Shown one piece after another: positions 1-16,422 of a DNA stretch of 17,922 nt. The stretch lies in IMG/VR virus record IMGVR_UViG_2526164632_000023; one strand, 5' to 3'. The DNA comes from a virus. Its lineage: Duplodnaviria > Heunggongvirae > Uroviricota > Caudoviricetes. A program made the translations under genes and the position numbers. Below the pieces are notes generated by a model that searched no databases, was not told the origin of the DNA, and saw only the letters and a list, made by a program, of their open reading frames with translations. Position 1 is the stretch's first letter. The number at the start of each line of letters is the position of its first letter.

Positions 1-1227
1 GTGGCTGGCACAAACAAACTGAGTGATAAAAAATTAAGATCGCTTCTCGGCGTAAAGCGGGATTCAGTAATTACCATTGCGGATGGTGAAGGATTAAGCA
101 TCAAAGTATCCATGATGGGATGCATTAGTTGGGTTTTCTCTTATCGTCTTGGTGGGCGTGGGAGCAAGTTAGAGCGCATTGTTCTTGGGCGTTACCCTGA
201 CATGTCGTTGAAAATGGCTAGGGAGAAGAGGGAACTATGCCGAAAATGGTATGCGGACGGGCTGAATCCACGACTTGAATTAGAACTTAGCGCAGAAGAA
301 AACCTTAACCCCGTAACTGTCCATGATGCCCTTGAATATTGGCTAATTCATTACGCAAGAAAAAAACGTAGTGACGAGGAACTGGTGCGGGCGCAATTAC
401 GTAAGCATATTTATCCGCGTCTTGGCCACTATCCGTTATCCCGGTGTGAAACGCGTCACTGGGTGGCATGTTTTGATGAAATTAACCAGTTCAGGCCAAT
501 CACTGCCGGGCGAATGTTCCAGATTTGTAAACAGGCCTTAAGATTCTGCAAGGTTCGCCGTTATGCCTCATGTGATGCCCTGGCTTTTATGACAATCCAG
601 GATGTAGGGCAACCATCGGGGCAGCGTGATAGGGTGCTGTCAGATAGTGAGTTAGCTGATGTATGGCGGTGTACTTATAGCGATGAACAGCAATTTTATT
701 ATCTTCGTCTGCTTAAGTTGCTTGTGCTGTTTGGGGCGCGAACAATGGAAGTAAGATTATCACGGTGGAGTGAATGGGATTTTCAGTCATGGATTTGGAC
801 GGTTCCTAAAGAACACAGCAAAACTCGTGAAAAAATAGTTCGTCCAATTCCAGAGGGCATTCGCCCATGGATTGAGGATCTAAAAAAGGAAACGGGAAAA
901 ACAGGAATTGTACTGGGTGAAGAACGTTCCCGCCAGGCTGCTTCGCTTAAAGGGCGTAGGCTATACAAAGATTTTCATCATAATGAGCCATGGACGCTTC
1001 ACGATTTGCGCAGAACATTTTCTACAGGTTTAAATAATATGGGTATTGCGCCACATATTGTAGAGCTTTTACTTGGTCATGCATTGCCGGGGGTGATGGC
1101 TATTTATAACCGTAGTCTGTACTTACCTGAGAAAATGGATGCGTTGAATAAGTGGTATGGCCGATTAGAACTTCTGGCGGGTAATCATCAAAATGTGGTG
1201 CTGTTACCTGTATCGAATAGAGGTTAA
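1..1227 (+). CDS. int: Tyrosine recombinase / integrase, P4-type (satellite/PICI integrase); 5' end lies at the window edge and may be truncated by a few codons
   Basis: 408-aa ORF. N-terminus LSDKKLRSLL...DGEGLSIKV...WVFSYRLGG matches the P4-type integrase arm-binding domain; C-terminus HDLRRTFSTGLNNMGIAPHIVELLLGHALPGVMAIYNRSLY carries the R/H/R/Y catalytic residues. First gene of the island. Confidence 0.9.
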   Translation: MAGTNKLSDKKLRSLLGVKRDSVITIADGEGLSIKVSMMGCISWVFSYRLGGRGSKLERIVLGRYPDMSLKMAREKRELCRKWYADGLNPRLELELSAEENLNPVTVHDALEYWLIHYARKKRSDEELVRAQLRKHIYPRLGHYPLSRCETRHWVACFDEINQFRPITAGRMFQICKQALRFCKVRRYASCDALAFMTIQDVGQPSGQRDRVLSDSELADVWRCTYSDEQQFYYLRLLKLLVLFGARTMEVRLSRWSEWDFQSWIWTVPKEHSKTREKIVRPIPEGIRPWIEDLKKETGKTGIVLGEERSRQAASLKGRRLYKDFHHNEPWTLHDLRRTFSTGLNNMGIAPHIVELLLGHALPGVMAIYNRSLYLPEKMDALNKWYGRLELLAGNHQNVVLLPVSNRG

Positions 1228-1318
1228 ACTGATATTACGGGCATAGGTCGGCCAACCGAAAAGCGGGAAACCCTACCCGCCTGGCTCGTAAAGTATTTAG
1301 GGCGTTGAGGGTAGCGCA

Positions 1319-1429
1319 ATGGCTAACGACATTAAAATTCCTTTTCAGTATTGCAACATTGAACGTGCATCAAGATTGCTGGGTTGCGAGATTAGCGATC
1401 TCGTGAATTTAGGTGTTACTAAAAAATAG
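1319..1429 (+). CDS. Very small ORF (36 aa) with helix-turn-helix-like segment; may be an N-terminal fragment of the downstream gene
   Basis: ATG 1319 to TAG 1427-1429, MANDIKIPFQYCNIERASRLLGCEISDLVNLGVTKK; ERASRLLGCEISDL resembles an HTH recognition segment. Ends in an A6 run; one extra A would fuse it in frame to the 1471 ORF. Below the ORF-track size cutoff. Confidence 0.2.
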   Translation: MANDIKIPFQYCNIERASRLLGCEISDLVNLGVTKK

Positions 1430-1470
1430 CTTTATGCCTAAATTTATTTGATGCTCGCGCTGTTTTATAT

Positions 1471-2247
1471 ATGAATACTGATAGCGAGTCTGCAACTGCT
1501 TGGTTTGATACCAGAAATGCAAAATCGACCACATCACTGATGGGGAACAATATTACGGAATACTCCAGATTTCATCTTTTCAGATACAATTATAATGAGG
1601 AGACAGATGAAACTATACACGCGCCTTTATTCGGTCAAGACTCAGAAAACGGATGCTTTAGCTCTATTGGTAGGGCTTATGGATTGTGGCGCCTTTGGAG
1701 TGGGCTGGAAGAGCTACAAAATTTTGGAGAGTATTCCCTAAGTGGTTTTGAATTAACCCCGTGTCATCCAGAAACTGATAATCCTGCCGTACAACTTTTA
1801 ATGGTTGGTGAAGATAGTGATTATGATGAAGAAGACGATCAAATATTAAAGAATAATATTTCTATAAATGACTTGTGGATTACCGCTCATGATATAAGGC
1901 GACTTCTTGACTGTGGTGGCGATTATTTTACGCTAACAGATAATTTTGAATCTGTAGAACCTCACAAGATGAATGGCAATGAAATTGTGCACCATTCTGC
2001 TGAAAGACATGCAAGAAATCGAGAGCAAATTTTAATGGTTGCTATGCGTTTTAAAGAAGAGCAACAAAATACTTTTAATGAGACCTGCAGAAAAAACGAT
2101 GGAACGATTAACTATTCTGCTTGGGCTCGTGAGTTGATCGCCAGACCTGATTGGTTCATTAATAGTGAATTGCCAATAAAAACAGAAACAAAAATAGCAG
2201 CAATTTTAAGTAATGCTCATAAGAGGCCGAGTGAAAGATCGCAGTAA
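1471..2247 (+). CDS. Hypothetical protein, AT-rich orphan/accessory gene (no recognisable domain)
   Basis: 258-aa uninterrupted ORF with visibly lower GC than its neighbours, acidic stretch GEDSDYDEEDDQ, no motif I recognise. Sits between int and alpA. Confidence 0.6.
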   Translation: MNTDSESATAWFDTRNAKSTTSLMGNNITEYSRFHLFRYNYNEETDETIHAPLFGQDSENGCFSSIGRAYGLWRLWSGLEELQNFGEYSLSGFELTPCHPETDNPAVQLLMVGEDSDYDEEDDQILKNNISINDLWITAHDIRRLLDCGGDYFTLTDNFESVEPHKMNGNEIVHHSAERHARNREQILMVAMRFKEEQQNTFNETCRKNDGTINYSAWARELIARPDWFINSELPIKTETKIAAILSNAHKRPSERSQ

Positions 2248-2269
2248 GCCTTACTCATATACTCCTAAG

Positions 2270-2302
2270 CATACTGATATATTTATAAGCATTATCAGTA
2301 TG
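2270..2302. repeat. Perfect inverted repeat (10-bp arms CATACTGATA / TATCAGTATG, 13-nt spacer); terminator or operator candidate
   Basis: Read directly: catactgata at 2270-2279, reverse complement tatcagtatg at 2293-2302; 23 bp after the stop of the 1471-2247 ORF and upstream of alpA. Confidence 0.5.
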
Positions 2303-2384
2303 TTTCTATGATTACTACTGTGTTTTAATCCAGTATTAAAGATTGCAAAATAGCCTCCGCAAGCATAGATACAGTGGAGGCAAT

Positions 2385-2669
2385 ATGACAAAAACCACAT
2401 TCATTCCCCCAACTCCAGAACAACGCCGGGCGCTTCTTGAAGAATACGGTTTTGAATTTGATCGCCGTATCCGTGAAAAGGAATGCCAGGAAATCACCAG
2501 TCTGTCGCGCTCAACTCGCTTCAAAATGGAAAATGAAGGGCGTTTCCCGCCTCGTTGTCATTTCGGGCGCAATAGCTGTGCGTGGCTTCTCTCTGATGTG
2601 CTTTGGTGGGTTCGTAACCCACCTGCTGTAGATAAAGTCAATAATCCGTACGGTAAGAAAGCTGCATAA
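2385..2669 (+). CDS. alpA: AlpA-family phage/island transcriptional regulator (HTH, excisionase-like)
   Basis: ITSLSRSTRFKMENEGRFPPRCHFGRNSCAWLLSDVLWWV matches the AlpA/Xis-type HTH. Start chosen at ATG 2385, 6 nt after a GGAGG Shine-Dalgarno (2376-2380), rather than the ORF-track start at 2343. Confidence 0.75.
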   Translation: MTKTTFIPPTPEQRRALLEEYGFEFDRRIREKECQEITSLSRSTRFKMENEGRFPPRCHFGRNSCAWLLSDVLWWVRNPPAVDKVNNPYGKKAA

Positions 2670-2696
2670 GGGGGGAGTTATGACACATAAAACAAA

Positions 2697-2716
2697 GGCG
2701 ACCGGGGGCGGTCGCC
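2697..2716. terminator. GC-rich hairpin between convergent genes (candidate terminator for the minus-strand operon)
   Basis: ggcgaccg / cggtcgcc 8-bp stem with GGGG loop; on the minus strand it is followed by a T-rich tract. Lies between the alpA stop and the stop of the minus-strand ORF at 2781. Confidence 0.4.
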
Positions 2717-2780
2717 AATGGGAAAACACTAAACATAAGCCCGAACATCATAGTGATTTGCTGGCTGGTGGGCAATGTGA

Positions 2781-2969
2781 TCAGTCAGATTTGGTTCGTT
2801 CCAAGGTTTGCAACGAGAGCTTTTTCCTGTGCTCTTTAAGGAATTGCTCAAGGGCAAAAGCACATGGCGCGAATCTTTCTGATTCATGCTCTATCTTTCT
2901 GCGCCGTCTTTTCCGTGCCGGTGATAATGTTTTGGTCAATTCTTTATCGGTCATTGTGTTGTCCTGCAT
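2781..2969 (-). CDS. Small highly basic hypothetical protein (57-62 aa), downstream of the RHH gene on the minus strand
   Basis: ORF MQDNTMTDKELTKTLSPARKRRRRKIEHESERF...; an alternative start at the second Met (coordinate 2954) has an AGGA upstream. No recognisable family. Confidence 0.3.
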   Translation of the reverse strand: MQDNTMTDKELTKTLSPARKRRRRKIEHESERFAPCAFALEQFLKEHRKKLSLQTLERTKSD

Positions 2970-3011
2970 AGCAATGCGCCGTAGTTACTCACACCACGGC
3001 GCTGGTGATGG

Positions 3012-3190
3012 TTACTCCTGCTCTTTGGCCTTGCGACGCTGGCGGCGTTTGATCTCACCTTTAACGGCAGTAACTATAAATTGCGCCTTGCTTTCACCTT
3101 CATCTAAATTTTTTCTAAGTCTGCAACAACATCATGCGGGAATCTGGCATTTAACTGTTGCGACTTATTATTTGTTGAACCTGTTGCCAT
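3012..3190 (-). pseudogene. Ribbon-helix-helix (CopG/Arc/MetJ-like) DNA-binding protein gene, interrupted by an apparent +1/-1 frameshift in a homopolymer run
   Basis: Minus-strand ATG at 3190 gives MATGSTNNKSQQLNARFPHDVVADLEKI then a stop. The adjacent frame continues DEGESKAQFIVTAVKGEIKRRQRRKAKEQE to a TAA at 3012-3014. Adding one base in the A3/T6 run at 3106-3114 restores a 59-aa product with beta-strand, helix, G-x-S turn and second helix. Confidence 0.5.
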
Positions 3191-3301
3191 TACTGAATCC
3201 TCTCTAAGTTGGTGCGATTCAGTATACACAAAAAAAATTTCAGAGAAAGAGTTGAAGTGCGATTCACTTACTGATGGGTTAAAAACGAATGGTGCGATGC
3301 A
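3191..3301. promoter_or_regulatory. Divergent control region with operator-like repeats between the RHH gene and the rightward early operon
   Basis: Inverted repeat TACTGAATC (3191-3199) / GATTCAGTA (3216-3224); three direct copies of GTGCGAT(T/G)CA at 3212-3221, 3257-3266 and 3292-3301; A8 tract at 3229-3236. Confidence 0.45.
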
Positions 3302-3380
3302 CCAAACAACAACGCCCCGCAGTGGTGGCACACATGCAGGGCGTCTAACCACCAACGATAGCGAAAGTATCGAGGTAGCT

Positions 3381-3584
3381 ATGAGAAATTATACCAGACA
3401 CCCGCAAGGGCGGGACTCGTACAACCTGAATAAATACATCTGGCGTTTTATCGCCCTGAGCACGGCACAACCGCGCGTGATTACCATTGAGGCCACCAGC
3501 GAACAGGAAGCACGCCAGCAATCTCCTGATGACTGCGTGATGGTATTCGCCGCCCGTATTCGTCAGGGGGTGCGCCATGCATGA
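3381..3584 (+). CDS. Hypothetical small protein (67 aa), first gene of rightward early operon
   Basis: ATG 3381 preceded by GAGGTAG; the ORF-track extension back to 3252 uses a TTG inside the operator repeats with no RBS. No family recognised. Confidence 0.35.
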   Translation: MRNYTRHPQGRDSYNLNKYIWRFIALSTAQPRVITIEATSEQEARQQSPDDCVMVFAARIRQGVRHA

Positions 3585-3792
3585 TGACCGTTATTTTAAA
3601 TCAATGAGCCATGCAGAAAACGCACTGACTAACAGTGAATGTTTGAGGCAAATATTTCTTATCTGGCTTGATGGTTTAAGTGATGCGCCGGAAGATGAGC
3701 GTGAGTCTAATCTTGCTGGTGCGTTTATTTCATTACTCGATACGGTAATCGTCGAATTAAATAAAGCGATCGAAATTCACGATAAAAAATAA
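3577..3792 (+). CDS. Hypothetical small protein (71 aa)
   Basis: ORF overlaps the upstream stop (coupled arrangement); no family recognised. Confidence 0.4.
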   Translation: MHDDRYFKSMSHAENALTNSECLRQIFLIWLDGLSDAPEDERESNLAGAFISLLDTVIVELNKAIEIHDKK

Positions 3793-3808
3793 ACGCGGAA
3801 TAAAAACC

Positions 3809-4096
3809 ATGAAACAGAAAATTTCTGGCTTTACTGCCAGCGGCCCCGCTCGGCCTGAAATCCGCCCCGGCGATATTTTCCGGGATAACTATGGCGGCAC
3901 GGTAACGATAAAAGGCGTGGTAGAACGGCACATTACTTACCGCCGTGAAGGTTATGAATATGACTGCGTGATGCCTGTTTATCAGTTCCGGCGTGATTTC
4001 ACGCTGGTGGGCCATCGTAAAGCCGTAAATCAGAAACGTGCAGCAAGTCATATCCGCAAAATTCGTGAAATGCTGGTCGCAGGGGGTAAAAAATGA
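3809..4096 (+). CDS. Hypothetical protein (95 aa), translationally coupled to the replication ATPase
   Basis: Stop overlaps the start of the 4093 ORF (ATGA). Confidence 0.5.
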   Translation: MKQKISGFTASGPARPEIRPGDIFRDNYGGTVTIKGVVERHITYRREGYEYDCVMPVYQFRRDFTLVGHRKAVNQKRAASHIRKIREMLVAGGKK

Positions 4097-5499
4097 AACT
4101 GGCACCGAACGTAAAACTGTTACCGAAAGATAAACACACTGAGGCGGTTATTTTTGCGGGTGATAATGCTCACTCCTTTGCAGAACATTACATGATTGCA
4201 CAGGCCAAAAAAGCAGGCGATCCCATCCCTCCGGTTTACCTGGGCCGTTATCAGTTAAGCGAACTGGACAACCTGCAGATTGTTGATGAGGGGCGATACA
4301 GGGTAACGGTGATACGCGCCGGAAATATTGACGAAGCGCAGCTGTTAACCATAGCGACAAAACTGGCGATCGCCGGAGTCCAGGAAGCGCGGCTGCTTTC
4401 TGAAAACTTCGAATTACTGGAGAAATGGACCGACCAGCTTCCACGGCTACGGGAGACATGGGAGAGAGGGGAAAGCCTGATCATGAACGGAGGAAAACAA
4501 AAAATCACGCTACCGATTTCATGGGGTTCTGAGGGATTCGACGCGCAGCAAAGCTACGTAATTAAGGGGCTTATTCCGGCTGAATCATTATGCAGCACCT
4601 ACGGGGCCAGCGGTTCTTATAAATCGTTCCTGGCTATTTCCTGGTCGTGCCATGTTGCCACAGGTATGGCATGGGGAGGCCGCAGGGTAAGTAAGGGCGC
4701 GGTTATCTATATCGCTGGCGAAGGCAGTATGGGCGTAAAACGCCGCGTTAAGGCGTGGGAGATAACCCACGACAAGGTGGTTACGGATTTGTGCATCGTT
4801 AACGCGCCTGTCTTCCCTGCATCGCCTGACTATGTGGAGCAGGTTATCAGGACTGCCGGACTTGTTAAGAGCAGAACGGGCGAAAATGTGCGGCTGATTG
4901 TGATCGACACGCTGGCCCGTTGCTTTGGTGGGAATGATGAAAATGATTCCCGTGATATGGGCGCATTTATCCAGGGGTGTGACGCGATAAAGCAGGCCAC
5001 AGGGGCCACGGTACTGGTGGTTCACCATTCCGGCAAGGATGAAACAAAGGGGGCGCGAGGTTCCAGCGCATTCCGCGCTGCACTGGATGCAGAGTACCGA
5101 ATCAGCCGGGAAAATTCAGACGTTACAGCACTGGTGGCGGCGTGTACGAAGATGAAAGACGCAGAGGAGCCAAAAGAGAGCGCATACGACCTTAAAAGCG
5201 TGGAGGTGTTTACCGATACCGATGGCGAAGAGATTGTGTCCATGGTGGTGATTGACGTTCCCCGCGCCCCTGCTGAACTGGAGCGCATAGAGGAGGCCGG
5301 GAACAAGACGGAAAATCACACGGCTTTATGGGGTTGTATCCGGTCACGTATACAGCATGGTGATAAATGCACGATCCCGCTGCTACGTGATGACATGAAA
5401 AAGCTGGGATATGACACAAAACACCTTAAACGATGGTTAGCCAAACTGGAAAAAGACGGCGTGATTTGCGTCGATGGGGATGATGTTCACCCACTGTAA
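4093..5499 (+). CDS. Replication initiator / RecA-fold AAA ATPase (RepA-like helicase, AAA_25-type) of the island
   Basis: 468 aa. Walker A GASGSYKSFLAISW, Walker B LIVIDTLARCFGG, VLVVHHSGKDETKGARGSSA motif typical of RepA-like helicases; followed directly by an iteron array. Confidence 0.8.
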   Translation: MKLAPNVKLLPKDKHTEAVIFAGDNAHSFAEHYMIAQAKKAGDPIPPVYLGRYQLSELDNLQIVDEGRYRVTVIRAGNIDEAQLLTIATKLAIAGVQEARLLSENFELLEKWTDQLPRLRETWERGESLIMNGGKQKITLPISWGSEGFDAQQSYVIKGLIPAESLCSTYGASGSYKSFLAISWSCHVATGMAWGGRRVSKGAVIYIAGEGSMGVKRRVKAWEITHDKVVTDLCIVNAPVFPASPDYVEQVIRTAGLVKSRTGENVRLIVIDTLARCFGGNDENDSRDMGAFIQGCDAIKQATGATVLVVHHSGKDETKGARGSSAFRAALDAEYRISRENSDVTALVAACTKMKDAEEPKESAYDLKSVEVFTDTDGEEIVSMVVIDVPRAPAELERIEEAGNKTENHTALWGCIRSRIQHGDKCTIPLLRDDMKKLGYDTKHLKRWLAKLEKDGVICVDGDDVHPL

Positions 5500-6411: not shown

Positions 6412-6954
6412 ATGACAACGCTGACCATTAACCGGAAGCCGAAAGGCATTTACGGCACGCCGCAGAAAACGACGCAGGCGGCGCAAGAGCAGGATAAAAC
6501 CACATCGGCGCATAAAGTGATACCCGATAATCAGAACGCACAGCAGAGCCGCAAACAGAAGACCGCAGGGGCGACACCGTGGCAGCATATGACCAAAAGA
6601 CAGCGCAAAAACCGCCGACGCGTTAACCGCCTCACTGAGATGTGGCCTGACTTATTCAGCCATAAAGCACCGAAGCCGCTTAAGGTGGGGATATTCGACG
6701 ACCTGATGCAGGATATCGCCGTCAGGGGGCTGGCATTCGGGTCGGGGGTATTACGTGCGACGCTGGCATCCTATGCGCAGTCTCCGCGCTATTACCGCGC
6801 CCTGATAGCTGGTGGCGCACGTTACGACCTGAAAGGCCAGCCATGTGGGGAAGTGACACCACAGGAACAGCAGGAGGCAGAAACACGGCTGATGGTGCTG
6901 AATGAGAAGCACAAGCGCCAGCGCCGGGCAGCAAAGGGGGATACATGCCAGTGA
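6412..6954 (+). CDS. ProQ/FinO-domain RNA-binding protein
   Basis: Central region PLKVGIFDDL...LRATLASYAQSPRYYRALIAGGARYDLKGQPCGEVTPQEQQEAE aligns by eye with the ProQ/FinO N-terminal domain as I remember it (PLKIGIF.DL ... LRSALRLYT.S.RY ... RVDLDGNPCGEL). Basic N- and C-terminal extensions. GGGGAAGG RBS before ATG 6412. Confidence 0.8.
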   Translation: MTTLTINRKPKGIYGTPQKTTQAAQEQDKTTSAHKVIPDNQNAQQSRKQKTAGATPWQHMTKRQRKNRRRVNRLTEMWPDLFSHKAPKPLKVGIFDDLMQDIAVRGLAFGSGVLRATLASYAQSPRYYRALIAGGARYDLKGQPCGEVTPQEQQEAETRLMVLNEKHKRQRRAAKGDTCQ

Positions 6955-7264: not shown

Positions 7265-7272
7265 GGTTGTTC
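7265..7272. repeat. Target-site duplication (left copy) GGTTGTTC
   Basis: Identical 8-mer directly abuts both IS ends (7265-7272 and 9976-9983). Confidence 0.8.
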
Positions 7273-7357
7273 GTAAGCGCATCATTTAAACCGTCTTTCG
7301 CCTCCCTTTCCTGTTTCCGATACTAATGTCCATTTTCGCAGTAAAAGGACATTTAAG

Positions 7358-8008
7358 ATGAATGCACGAAAAGCGGTACTGGCAGATAATCCAGAATTGA
7401 TCCTGCGTGTGCTACAGCTGAGATTTGACGAGTCACTGTCGTACCCGCGCATTTCTGCGCAGACTGGTGTCAGCAAAACCGCCATTTTTTCTCTGGTGAG
7501 GCGATTTCACCAGGTATTCACTGACTGGCCTCTTTCCGGTGAATATTCCTGCGGGCAACTGGCCCGGGCTCTTTTCCCGGGGCGATACCCTTCAGCCCCG
7601 ACCGTGACTCAGCCTGTGAAAGCAGAGAAACCCCGCCGGAACCGATTTTCACCGGAGTTTAAATGGAGACTGGTTCAGCAAACTCTTTTACCCGGTGCCT
7701 GTGTCGCACAAATAGCTCGAGAGAATGGAATTAACGATAACCTGCTCTTTAACTGGCGGCATCTCTGGCGTAACGGTGGCCTGCAACCGCCCGGCGAACA
7801 TGAAACATCGCTACTTCCCGTGACGTTAACTCCGGAGCCGGATAATAAAATCCCGGCACCAGTGCAGATACCTGAACAGATAAATACACTGCCAGACAGT
7901 CTGTGCTGCGAGCTGGTTCTGCCGGCCGGAACTCTCAGGCTGAAAGGTGAACTGACACCGGCGTTATTACAGACACTTATCCGCGAAATGAAAGGGAGCA
8001 GCCACTGA
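7358..8008 (+). CDS. tnpA: IS66-family accessory protein TnpA (orfA)
   Basis: 216 aa with HTH-like N-terminus; position and sequence typical of IS66 orfA; stop overlaps the tnpB start. Confidence 0.8.
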   Translation: MNARKAVLADNPELILRVLQLRFDESLSYPRISAQTGVSKTAIFSLVRRFHQVFTDWPLSGEYSCGQLARALFPGRYPSAPTVTQPVKAEKPRRNRFSPEFKWRLVQQTLLPGACVAQIARENGINDNLLFNWRHLWRNGGLQPPGEHETSLLPVTLTPEPDNKIPAPVQIPEQINTLPDSLCCELVLPAGTLRLKGELTPALLQTLIREMKGSSH

Positions 8009-8355
8009 TGATATCTCTCCCTGCCGGTTCGCGTATCTGGCTGGTTGCCGGTATCACCGATATGCGAAATGGCTTTAACGGCCTGGCCTCAAAAGTTCAG
8101 AACGTCCTGAAGGATGACCCGTTCTCCGGGCATCTGTTCATCTTCCGCGGACGCCGGGGTGACCAGATAAAAGTGCTGTGGGCTGACAGTGACGGACTGT
8201 GCCTCTTCACCAAACGCCTGGAGCGGGGCCGCTTCGTCTGGCCGGTCACCCGCGATGGAAAGGTTCACCTTACTCCGGCTCAGTTGTCCATGCTTCTCGA
8301 AGGCATCGACTGGAAGCACCCGAAACGAACGGAACGCGCTGGCATCCGCATATAA
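8008..8355 (+). CDS. tnpB: IS66-family accessory protein TnpB (orfB)
   Basis: 115 aa, MISLPAGSRIWLVAGITDMRNGFNGLA...LWADSDGLCLFTKRLERGRF is the conserved IS66 orfB signature. Confidence 0.9.
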   Translation: MISLPAGSRIWLVAGITDMRNGFNGLASKVQNVLKDDPFSGHLFIFRGRRGDQIKVLWADSDGLCLFTKRLERGRFVWPVTRDGKVHLTPAQLSMLLEGIDWKHPKRTERAGIRI

Positions 8356-8374
8356 CCCGTTGTAAAGTGAGGAT

Positions 8375-9945
8375 ATGGACACCTCACTTGCTCATGAGAA
8401 TGCCCGCCTGCGGGCACTGTTGCAGACGCAACAGGACACCATCCGCCAGATGGCGAAATACAACCGCCTGCTCTCACAGCGGGTGGCGGCTTATGCTTCC
8501 GAAATCAACCGGCTGAAGGCGCTGGTTGCGAAACTGCAGCGCATGCAGTTCGGTAAAAGCTCAGAAAAACTTCGCGCTAAAACCGAACGGCAGATACAGG
8601 AAGCACAGGAGCGAATCAGCGCACTTCAGGAAGAAATGGCGGAAACGCTGGGTGAGCAATATGACCCGGTACTGCCATCCGCCCTGCGCCAGTCTTCAGC
8701 CCGTAAACCGTTACCGGCCTCACTTCCCCGTGAAACCCGGGTCATCCGGCCGGAAGAGGAATGCTGCCCGGCCTGTGGTGGTGACCTCAGTCCTCTGGGG
8801 TGTGATGTGTCAGAGCAACTGGAGCTTATCAGCAGCGCCTTTAAGGTTATCGAAACACAACGTCCGAAACTGGCCTGTTGTCGGTGCGACCATATCGTGC
8901 AGGCAACAGTACCTTCAAAACCCATTGCACGCAGTTATGCCGGAGCGGGGCTTCTGGCCCATGTTGTTACCGGGAAATATGCAGACCATCTGCCGTTATA
9001 CCGCCAGTCAGAAATATACCGTCGCCAGGGCGTGGAGCTGAGCCGCGCCACGCTGGGGCGCTGGACAGGTGCCGTTGCTGAACTGCTGGAGCCGCTGTAT
9101 GACGTCCTGCGCCAGTATGTGCTGATGCCCGGTAAAGTCCATGCTGATGATATCCCCGTCCCGGTCCAGGAGCCGGGCAGCGGTAAAACCCGGACCGCCC
9201 GGCTGTGGGTCTACGTCCGTGATGACCGTAACGCCGGTTCGGAAATGCCCCCGGCGGTCTGGTTCGCGTACTCACCGGACCGGAAAGGTATCCATCCACA
9301 AAATCATCTGGCCGGTTACAGCGGTGTGCTTCAGGCCGATGCTTACGGTGGTTACCGGGTGTTATACGAATCCGGCAGAATAACGGAAGCCGCGTGTATG
9401 GCTCATGCCCGGAGAAAAATCCACGATGTGCATGCAAGAGTGCCCACCGACATCACCACGGAAGCCCTGCAGCGTATCGGTGAACTGTATGCCATAGAGG
9501 CAGAATCCGGGGATGTACAGCAGAACAGCGTCTGGCGGCAAGAAAAGCCAGAGCTGCGCCACTGATGCAGTCACTGTATGACTGGATACAGACTCAGATG
9601 AAAACACTGTCGCGTCACTCGGATACGGCAAAAGCGTTCGCATACCTGCTGAAACAGTGGGATGGCCTGAACGTGTACTGCAGTAATGGCTGGGTGGAAA
9701 TCGACAACAACATCGCAGAGAACGCCTTACGGGGAGTGGCCGTAGGCCGGAAAAACTGGCTGTTCGCGGGTTCCGACAGCGGTGGCGAACATGCGGCGGT
9801 GTTGTACTCGCTGATCGGCACATGCCGTCTGAACAATGTGGAACCAGAAAAATGGCTGCGTTACGTCATTGAGCATATCCAGGATTGGCCGGCAAACCGG
9901 GTACGCGATCTGTTGCCCTGGAAAGTTGATCTGACCTCTCAGTAA
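8375..9945 (+). pseudogene. tnpC: IS66-family transposase TnpC, split by an apparent 1-nt frameshift near 9500-9510
   Basis: ORF 8375-9565 has the leucine-zipper N-terminus, CPACGG...CCRC zinc-finger motif and DDE core; ORF 9565-9945 in another frame carries the conserved C-terminus [26 protein letters not shown]. The second frame is open back to 9484, so the shift lies in 9484-9565. Confidence 0.8.
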
Positions 9946-9975
9946 ATATCAATACGGTTCTGGCGAGCCGCTTAC

Positions 9976-9983
9976 GGTTGTTC
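9976..9983. repeat. Target-site duplication (right copy) GGTTGTTC
   Basis: See left copy at 7265-7272. Confidence 0.8.
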
Positions 9984-16174: not shown

Positions 16175-16422
16175 CGAGAATGAGCGAAACCGAACTACTA
16201 AAAATAATCCGCCGCGTTACCGGAATCAGCCAGCAGCATGACGAACAGGCCACGCAGCCGGACAGCGTGACCGCCGAAAATTATGTGCGTGTTGTAGCGG
16301 AAGTGATGCGCCGTAATGGTATCCAGCTTAATGATGTGGATATGCGCAACATACGGATCCGCGTTCTGGAAATGCTGGCATACCGTCGCCGCGTGGAGAT
16401 GTATCGGGAGAAGGAAAAATAA
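16171..16422 (+). CDS. Hypothetical protein (83 aa) downstream of terL
   Basis: Start overlaps the terL stop (ATGA); no family recognised. Confidence 0.45.
   Translation: MTRMSETELLKIIRRVTGISQQHDEQATQPDSVTAENYVRVVAEVMRRNGIQLNDVDMRNIRIRVLEMLAYRRRVEMYREKEK

Follow-up and report, generated by a model that had tools for sequence, protein, structure and literature searches.

The 17,922-nucleotide stretch analysed here (IMG/VR virus record IMGVR_UViG_2526164632_000023), referred to below as the window, is by its gene content a capsid-forming phage-inducible chromosomal island (cf-PICI) lying between gcd and hpt. Between its integrase gene (int) and alpA, the gene of an excision and induction regulator, the island carries a single gene that we call X, which appears in the window as two open reading frames (ORFs) and in relatives as one gene for a conserved hypothetical protein of 309 amino acids. 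X is a fixed component of the integration and induction module in a subset of Enterobacterales satellites with P4-type integrases, phage-inducible chromosomal islands (PICIs) and cf-PICIs alike, and this position is the strongest evidence that we have on it. Based on the position and on one tested positional analogue from Vibrio, we propose, with a probability of about one half, that X, coupled to the integrase, binds DNA as a partner of AlpA in the switch that controls excision and induction.

A single gene read as two ORFs

The initial annotation of the window described a 258-amino-acid ORF at 1471-2247 that begins ATGAATACTGATAGC and, upstream of it, a 36-amino-acid ORF at 1319-1429 ending in a run of six adenines (A6, 1421-1426), and pointed out that one added A would fuse the two into a product of 309 amino acids. 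Both ORFs and the run are present in the sequence as described, and the fused product is the one that relatives encode. A megablast search with positions 1200-2450 located the region in 12 of 5,426 complete Escherichia coli genomes, nine of them at 99% identity or more, and all nine of these matches cover one or two nucleotides more than the query. Read base by base, AST240, ATCC 43886 and FDAARGOS_1283 have A7 where the window has A6, and each is annotated with a single coding sequence (CDS) of 930 nucleotides for 309 amino acids; A7 was found in all relatives read, by alignment and by list of differences. The annotated protein is WP_032199958.1 in AST240, whose locus is identical, and in ATCC 43886, and WP_039273118.1 in FDAARGOS_1283, a variant that is 88% identical.

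Gene X runs from 1319 to 2247 on the plus strand, with one A missing in the window. The 36-amino-acid ORF (plus strand), which closes with ACT AAA AAA TAG, is its N-terminal part, a predicted winged helix-turn-helix (HTH), shortened by the frameshift, and the 258-amino-acid ORF (plus strand) corresponds to codons 52-309, comprising the predicted beta-rich middle domain, the acidic linker and the conserved C-terminal helical domain. Judged by these alignments, the latter ORF is a fragment of X and no separate gene: its ATG at 1471 is codon 52 of X and has no Shine-Dalgarno sequence upstream, and the gene boundaries first assigned to it were wrong.

Aligned over its whole length, the window differs from the AST240 island by 11 substitutions in about 15 kb and by four indels. 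Each of these indels is a 1-nucleotide deletion in a homopolymer of the window that lies within an annotated CDS: A7 to A6 in X (1421-1426), T7 to T6 at 3109-3114, A7 to A6 at 3784-3789 and A6 to A5 at 16415-16419. A fifth deletion, G5 to G4 at 9509-9512, splits the transposase of the insertion sequence (IS) IS679 and is the sole difference from reference IS679 copies. The five CDSs frameshifted in this way are X, a YlcI/YnfO family gene, two hypothetical genes and the IS679 transposase. As all five indels are gene-breaking homopolymer deletions, they indicate homopolymer under-calling and not biology, and the split of X is almost certainly a one-base artefact of assembly or sequencing. That the A6 allele is real, making X a true pseudogene in this strain or the A-run a slippery site for phase variation, transcriptional slippage or programmed frameshifting, seems to us very unlikely. 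A-runs are mutational hotspots, the source genome of the window is outside the E. coli collection searched, and the island, in which IS679 has inserted, may be decaying; against this, the deletions strike five separate genes on a background of only 11 substitutions, A6 occurs in none of the relatives read, ACT AAA AAA ATA differs from the canonical X XXY YYZ slippery site, and its K-K-I codons are ordinary conserved coding sequence. Since the assembly under-calls homopolymers, its other short or split ORFs are not to be trusted as they stand.

Position of X between int and alpA

The window has int up to 1227, followed by X from 1319 and alpA from 2385, and the three genes share the plus strand. 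In all of about 28 distinct loci that were read, down to about 20% identity, a P4-type int lies directly upstream of X on the same strand, and in all of these but L112 an alpA/HTH_17 gene, or a short ORF in the position of alpA, follows directly 3' of X. X is coupled to int either by a 4-nucleotide ATGA overlap or by an intervening conserved RNA, the int-alpA RNA. The loci come from E. coli at gcd/hpt and at yhdJ (two subtypes), from Morganella, Photorhabdus and Xenorhabdus, from a Klebsiella "phage" record and from ten metagenomic contigs whose members are 18-35% identical to X; a locus search with a closer X alignment gave five Xenorhabdus loci. The replication modules beside X vary and include a RepA helicase, a D5-type primase, DUF927 and Toprim/DUF3631.

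In satellites of IMG/VR that are integrated at fis, the gene after int overlaps it by 4 nucleotides (ATGA), and in 11 distinct loci this gene belongs to the X family; hhalign aligned the int-overlapping genes with the X family over 248 columns at a probability of 98.6% (E 1e-15). A second set of int-overlapping genes in these satellites (L052, L064, L074, L084 and L092) is unrelated to X and consists of DUF6387 (PF19924). DUF6387 takes the same slot as X, either after the int-alpA RNA (L110, 2619-3425) or overlapping int by 1-4 nucleotides, and is similar to X in size and in its low GC content, but has no relationship to it in sequence (hhalign probability below 1%).

The int-alpA interval had been expected to vary between related islands, and it does: it is without a gene in EcCIEDL933-like cf-PICIs and holds DUF6387 in one E. 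coli island. The canonical EcCIEDL933-type cf-PICIs of E. coli, whose downstream regulation and replication genes are common with those of the window island and were found in 1,876 genomes, have a gene-less int-alpA gap of 363 nucleotides and a short AlpA. AlpA has 93-94 amino acids, with an N-terminal extension of about 26-30, in islands with X or DUF6387 after the int-alpA RNA, and 62 amino acids in the X-less cf-PICIs (L011 and L013). In EcCIMP1 no CDS is annotated between int and alpA. YfjH of the E. coli K-12 element CP4-57, a protein of 318 amino acids encoded between intA and alpA, was considered as a relative of X and rejected, its gene being on the opposite strand and the hhalign probability 0.2%. 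L112 (E. coli Ec1120, gcd site, 1301-5109) has the window-type integrase, the int-alpA RNA and the same attachment (att) site as the window, and there an IS3-like remnant and BREX genes (WYL regulator, DUF1819, DUF1788) replace X and alpA.

A positional analogue in Vibrio

The position of X has a precedent in the PICMIs (phage-inducible chromosomal minimalist islands) of Vibrio, in which a gene of unknown function, iolg or icg, occupies the interval from int to alpA, in most cases with an ATGA overlap with int (Barcia-Cruz et al. 2024; PMC10803314). The slot is filled in 25 of 35 PICMI subfamilies, by 13 unrelated families; int and iolg are constitutive and alpA is induced by phage; and in PICMI115 iolg, together with int and alpA, is required for excision and transfer (PMC10803314). 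Like iolg/icg, X is a single gene of unknown function between int and alpA on the same strand, and members of its family show both states known for iolg/icg, overlap with int by ATGA and contiguity with it. In both cases the slot hosts several unrelated families and in some elements no gene. The two elements differ in scale, a PICMI being a minimalist element of 6 kb and the window island a capsid-forming one of 15 kb, and X in the window follows the int-alpA RNA, unlike the overlapping iolg. The excision requirement was demonstrated for PICMI115 iolg only, to which X is likened by position, and it is from this position and this one tested analogue that we infer a role of X in excision.

The int-alpA RNA ahead of X

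The spacer between int and X is filled by the int-alpA RNA motif (Rfam RF02996), a three-stem structured RNA at 1236-1302 on the plus strand, which ends 16 nucleotides before the start codon of X. It was called by cmscan over the full model (1-71) with 55.2 bits, compared to a gathering score of 35.8 (E 3e-9). Where int and X do not overlap, the spacer measures about 90 nucleotides and retains 77-79% identity between loci in which the identity of the X proteins is down to 30-47%; its stems show compensatory changes, such as GCGGG/CCCGC to GCAAG/CTTGC. The motif was also called in L002, L005, L010, L024 and L028, and it was not called in the X-less cf-PICIs, in CP4-57 or in EcCIMP1. In an nhmmer survey the gene 3' of the motif was a member of the X family in about ten distinct loci, DUF6387 in one, and an IS remnant followed by BREX genes in one; in the loci read, the motif precedes X or DUF6387 and not alpA directly.

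RF02996 is an RNA element neighbouring X and distinct from the gene itself; no function is described for it in the literature searched, and its link with the X family was previously unremarked. Its placement suggests that the int-alpA RNA may behave as a 5' leader of the slot gene, replacing the ATGA overlap. Other Rfam RNAs are found in related satellites, namely the small RNAs STAXI and EFASI in the Photorhabdus island (L010, 12101-12290 and 12817-12944) and a C4 antisense RNA with isrK in EcCIMP1 (L108, 1100-1327).

Co-inheritance of X with alpA

The block made of the int-alpA RNA, X and alpA is 88% identical in nucleotide sequence between the window and an island at yhdJ, which is a different att site. 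Between these two islands X is 90.6% and AlpA 84% identical, whereas Int is only 59% identical and the replication genes differ. Mantel tests on 17 loci yielded r 0.53 for X against AlpA (0 of 5,000 permutations as high) and a weak r of 0.20 for X against Int (154 of 5,000 as high), the values being inflated by shared ancestry. The direction of these correlations speaks for a function of X together with AlpA, or with DNA sites inside its own block, and not with a particular att site. The candidate role of an att-site-specific partner of Int was dropped as Int-X co-variation is weak overall (r 0.12-0.20).

Protein family and predicted structure

X had been called an orphan, a description refuted by a full-length match of the 309-amino-acid product to phrog_7144, a family of unknown function (E 4.7e-36, residues 3-301 to profile positions 4-311 of 313), and by the number of its relatives. 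The 258-amino-acid piece of the window matches the profile hidden Markov model of the X family at E 3e-117. A word-indexed search returned 21 clusters at 90% identity, the named ones from Enterobacter, Photorhabdus, Arsenophonus and Morganella, and a profile search of 1.84 billion representatives returned 335 clusters (50% identity) at E <=0.001, nearly all of 230-370 amino acids, with named members from Pantoea, Salmonella, Providencia and Pseudaeromonas that are all labelled "hypothetical protein". Searches of Pfam, NCBIfam, PADLOC and PDB sequences gave no match to the 258- or the 309-amino-acid product; no PADLOC-DB family matched X at E up to 1, profile searches of the PDB with two X-family alignments gave nothing significant, and Foldseek returned nothing from the PDB and BFVD at E up to 0.001.

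An AlphaFold2 model, obtained from a 19-sequence alignment with an 89%-identical orthologue as the query, has a mean pLDDT (predicted local distance difference test score) of 82.9. It predicts a strand-helix-helix-strand unit (residues 11-52), a poorly conserved beta-rich middle domain (56-165), a disordered acidic linker (166-176), a small strand-strand-helix unit (179-198) and a four-helix C-terminal domain (226-300) that holds the best-conserved motifs, HHSAERHAxNRE and CRKxDGxINYSAWAREL. Structural matches of the model are limited to winged HTHs (Xis, BldC, MerR, AlpA, RdfS and TniQ), and its N-terminus has the strand-helix-turn-helix-wing fold that defines the Xis/AlpA/MerR (HTH_17) class. 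The X protein of the window has no Pfam HTH_17 match above the gathering score, and three of ten X-family N-termini gave sub-threshold HTH_17 or MerR matches in register (E 0.16-0.32). An N-terminal winged HTH of the Xis/MerR/AlpA type is supported by the model, which bears out the HTH-like nature ascribed to the 36-amino-acid ORF. A duplicated HTH, formed by the N-terminal unit and residues 179-198 with their similar motifs RLLGC and RLLDC, was rejected (hhalign probability 1.5%).

The excisionases and other recombination directionality factors with this fold, and AlpA itself (lambda-type Xis, TorI, Tn916 Xis, RdfS; HTH_17, MerR-like winged HTH), have 55-95 amino acids compared to 309 in X. 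X further differs from them in having two additional domains without a known match, in falling below the Pfam HTH_17 threshold, and in residing in an island that already has a bona fide AlpA.

Repeats and hairpins around X and alpA

A perfect 10-bp inverted repeat just past the stop codon of X, reported in the initial annotation, was confirmed: CATACTGATA at 2270-2279 and TATCAGTATG at 2293-2302. It extends to 13-nucleotide arms that are 92% complementary (2267-2279 and 2293-2305) across a 13-nucleotide spacer, giving a predicted hairpin at 2267-2305 on the plus strand, 20 nucleotides past the stop, with an RNA folding energy of -14.1 kcal/mol. Hairpins of -12 to -25 kcal/mol are found just past the X stop in most loci, their sequences being unrelated between loci. 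Some of them, with their short loop and T-rich tail, look like intrinsic terminators; that of the window has a 13-nucleotide loop and a weak tail. In the window the hairpin probably terminates the int-X transcript and insulates alpA, which fits the constitutive expression of int and iolg and the phage induction of alpA in PICMIs; it could also have a role as an operator. A simple scan for sigma-70 promoters and terminators between X and alpA found nothing convincing.

A second predicted hairpin, in the leader of alpA (2353-2381, plus strand), arises where GCCUCCGC (2353-2360) pairs with GUGGAGGC (2374-2381), and hides the Shine-Dalgarno sequence of alpA. Leader hairpins of the same architecture and different sequence were obtained in about 12 of 16 loci, as minimum-free-energy folds with a weak shuffle control. 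The Shine-Dalgarno sequence is the 3' arm, with a loop of 12-17 nucleotides, in the window, L002, L005, L009, L010, L011, L014, L020, L024, L058, L061 and L072, and this arrangement suggests that alpA is under translational control via its leader hairpin.

The 258-amino-acid ORF had also been described as bracketed by repeats. The copy at its start, AATACTGATA, matches CATACTGATA at nine of ten positions, and because it lies within the true coding sequence of X the bracketing was rejected. With at most one mismatch CATACTGATA occurs four times compared to 0.69 expected (2 of 200 shuffles equal), two of the four copies being the inverted repeat itself. The heptamer ACTGATA is present in 10 copies compared to 1.35 expected (0 of 200 shuffles reach 10), of which five are in 1228-2299: the sites are at 1228, 1477, 1774, 2273 and 2293 (minus strand), and at 3980 (minus), 4249 (minus), 5833, 13912 and 16634. 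A different motif, ACAGGTG(T), has four copies in the equivalent int-alpA interval of the Morganella locus L005. Both repeats could be protein-binding half-sites.

Occupied by X, such sites would make it a repressor and sensor of alpA, a Gram-negative analogue of Stl of the Staphylococcus aureus pathogenicity islands (SaPIs): with its HTH on the inverted repeat and the ACTGATA sites upstream of alpA it would hold alpA off, and a helper-phage protein would release it by way of the middle domain. We consider this unlikely. Stl is similar to X in being int-adjacent, in its size of about 250-300 amino acids, in its N-terminal HTH and divergent other domains, and in belonging to a highly diverse family, and in X the predicted winged HTH is followed by a middle domain of low conservation and by a C-terminus that is conserved. 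The inverted repeat between X and alpA is found in many loci with an 11-17-nucleotide spacer unlike a typical terminator loop, and its sequence changes with X and AlpA; the excess of ACTGATA, half of whose copies fall between the int stop and alpA, the ACAGGTG(T) copies of Morganella, and the inheritance of X and AlpA as a co-varying block point the same way. However, no sequence or whole-fold similarity between X and Stl was found. X is co-directional with alpA and all downstream genes, whereas Stl is divergent from the operon that it controls; deletion of the positional analogue iolg abolished excision and did not induce it (PMC10803314); and cf-PICIs devoid of X are still phage-inducible through alpA. 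In fis-integrated satellites, moreover, the spacer between X and alpA is only 14-57 nucleotides, with little room for a promoter and operator, and the repeats may equally be sites of autoregulation by AlpA, which activates its own promoter. A wider form of the idea, which we hold to be less likely still, would make X and the int-alpA RNA the missing control layer for alpA switch-on in Gram-negative satellites, X being an Stl-like sensor whose middle domain reads a helper-phage signal, the RNA setting the dosage of X, and DUF6387 and the other iolg families serving as sensors for other helpers.

Base composition and the cargo hypothesis

The markedly lower GC content of the 258-amino-acid ORF relative to the flanking island genes is confirmed, with 38.1% compared to 45.2% in int, 48.1% in alpA and 48-52% in the rest of the island. 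It is shared by all 12 loci compared (the window, L002, L005, L009, L010, L014, L022, L024, L028, L063, L110 and L111), in which X or DUF6387, whichever fills the slot, has a GC content lower than that of both int and alpA by about 7-18 points (typically 10-15), independently of host GC from Photorhabdus (42% GC) to E. coli. As the trough is found in all 12 loci whatever the host GC, it is not evidence of recent acquisition: low GC is a standing property of the slot and no mark of recent arrival in the island.

In the initial annotation the gene was regarded as accessory, possibly anti-phage, cargo. On this hypothesis X would be an exchangeable single gene for anti-phage defence or host fitness in an int-proximal hotspot, unrelated to the life cycle of the satellite. 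The persistently low GC agrees with it, as does the content of the slot, empty in canonical cf-PICIs, occupied by DUF6387 in another island and by 13 families in PICMIs (PMC10803314); X has no known function, PADLOC 2023 cannot list undiscovered systems, and BREX genes lie downstream in an island that has this type of int and the int-alpA RNA. Yet X matches nothing in PADLOC, Pfam or NCBIfam, and the content of the slot is always a single gene, for about 230-430 amino acids (mostly 230-370), that runs in the direction of int and is linked with it through the ATGA overlap or the conserved RNA leader, whereas known hotspots hold varied, multi-gene and often opposite-strand cargo. The X family was never found outside the order int, X (and alpA) in the roughly 28 loci, and in PICMI115 the defence gene is up2, at the other end of the element from iolg, which is needed for excision (PMC10803314). 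The cargo hypothesis is not supported by these data; we judge it highly doubtful and probably wrong. A gene conserved at this position in all related islands and with core-like composition had been named as the finding that would speak against cargo, and here the outcome is divided: the position is conserved in every island that has X, while X is absent from some related islands and its composition is not core-like.

The island and its other genes

The island has int, alpA, a replication gene and a complete capsid and packaging module, has no tail or lysis genes, and has a length of about 15 kb without IS679, within the 10-15 kb or so of cf-PICIs. It starts with int, X, alpA, the YlcI/YnfO family gene, an Icd-like gene and a DUF4222 gene, continues in its replication part with a RepA-type helicase, a single-stranded DNA-binding protein (SSB), a ProQ/FinO-like gene and then the IS679 insertion, and ends with the capsid and packaging genes for the major capsid protein, prohead protease, portal, adaptor, HNH, TerS and TerL, which are followed by chromosomal hpt. 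The integrase is a P4-type tyrosine recombinase of 408 amino acids (1-1227, plus strand; Pfam Arm-DNA-bind_3, Phage_int_M and Phage_integrase) and is annotated as a tyrosine recombinase in AST240. AlpA, the excision and induction regulator encoded downstream of X as its partner, has 94 amino acids (2385-2669, plus strand; Pfam Phage_AlpA, E 4.7e-12). A ProQ/FinO-family RNA-binding protein is encoded at 6412-6954 on the plus strand, according to the annotation of the identical AST240 gene. IS679, of the IS66 family, occupies 7273-9975 between the replication and capsid genes and is absent from the AST240 island; it has the terminal repeats GTAAGCG/CGCTTAC and is flanked by an 8-bp target duplication, GGTTGTTC, at 7265-7272 and 9976-9983.

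Discussion

The module runs from int, through either an ATGA overlap or the int-alpA RNA, to X, which is followed by a hairpin and then alpA. We propose that X would be made together with the integrase, through translational coupling where the genes overlap and, in the window, via the structured int-alpA RNA leader, and the hairpin past the X stop would end the int-X transcript, such that alpA stays under separate, phage-inducible control. The X protein would bind DNA via its N-terminal winged HTH and would act with AlpA and Int at the switch from the integrated to the excised state, either within the excision complex, in an accessory or architectural capacity, or by setting the activity level of alpA or int.

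A number of observations weigh against this proposal. The transfer of function from iolg to X goes by position and not by homology: no Vibrionaceae homologues of X were present among the 21 clusters of the word-indexed search or the 335 of the profile search, a profile search seeded with the int-overlapping homologues returned Enterobacterales only, and a scan of viral contigs for the fis-end att repeat found enterobacterial fis-integrated satellites and no PICMI. In addition, the iolg deletion of PICMI115 was complemented with int and iolg jointly, and a polar effect on int is not fully excluded (PMC10803314). For excision and transfer, int and alpA suffice in the canonical E. coli cf-PICIs, whose slot is empty, and X is therefore not universally needed. 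The slot can also hold the unrelated DUF6387, and its gene is AT-rich everywhere, which fits exchangeable cargo as well. X tracks neither Int nor the att site, which argues against an att-specific arm-binding factor, and its middle and C-terminal domains match nothing known in structure and PDB profile searches.

The X family is widespread, locked in position, uncharacterised and tied to an orphan Rfam motif; genes of this kind were described in 2024, and it is not categorically new. Two questions that have been stated as open for Gram-negative satellites are how alpA is triggered by helper phages and in what way the int-coupled gene cooperates with Int and AlpA during excision (PMC10803314). 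With its membership in phrog_7144, which has no Pfam entry, its confident structure model and its fixed place between int and alpA, X is a tractable enterobacterial model in which to address them, and experiments on X could assign a function both to this protein family and to RF02996.

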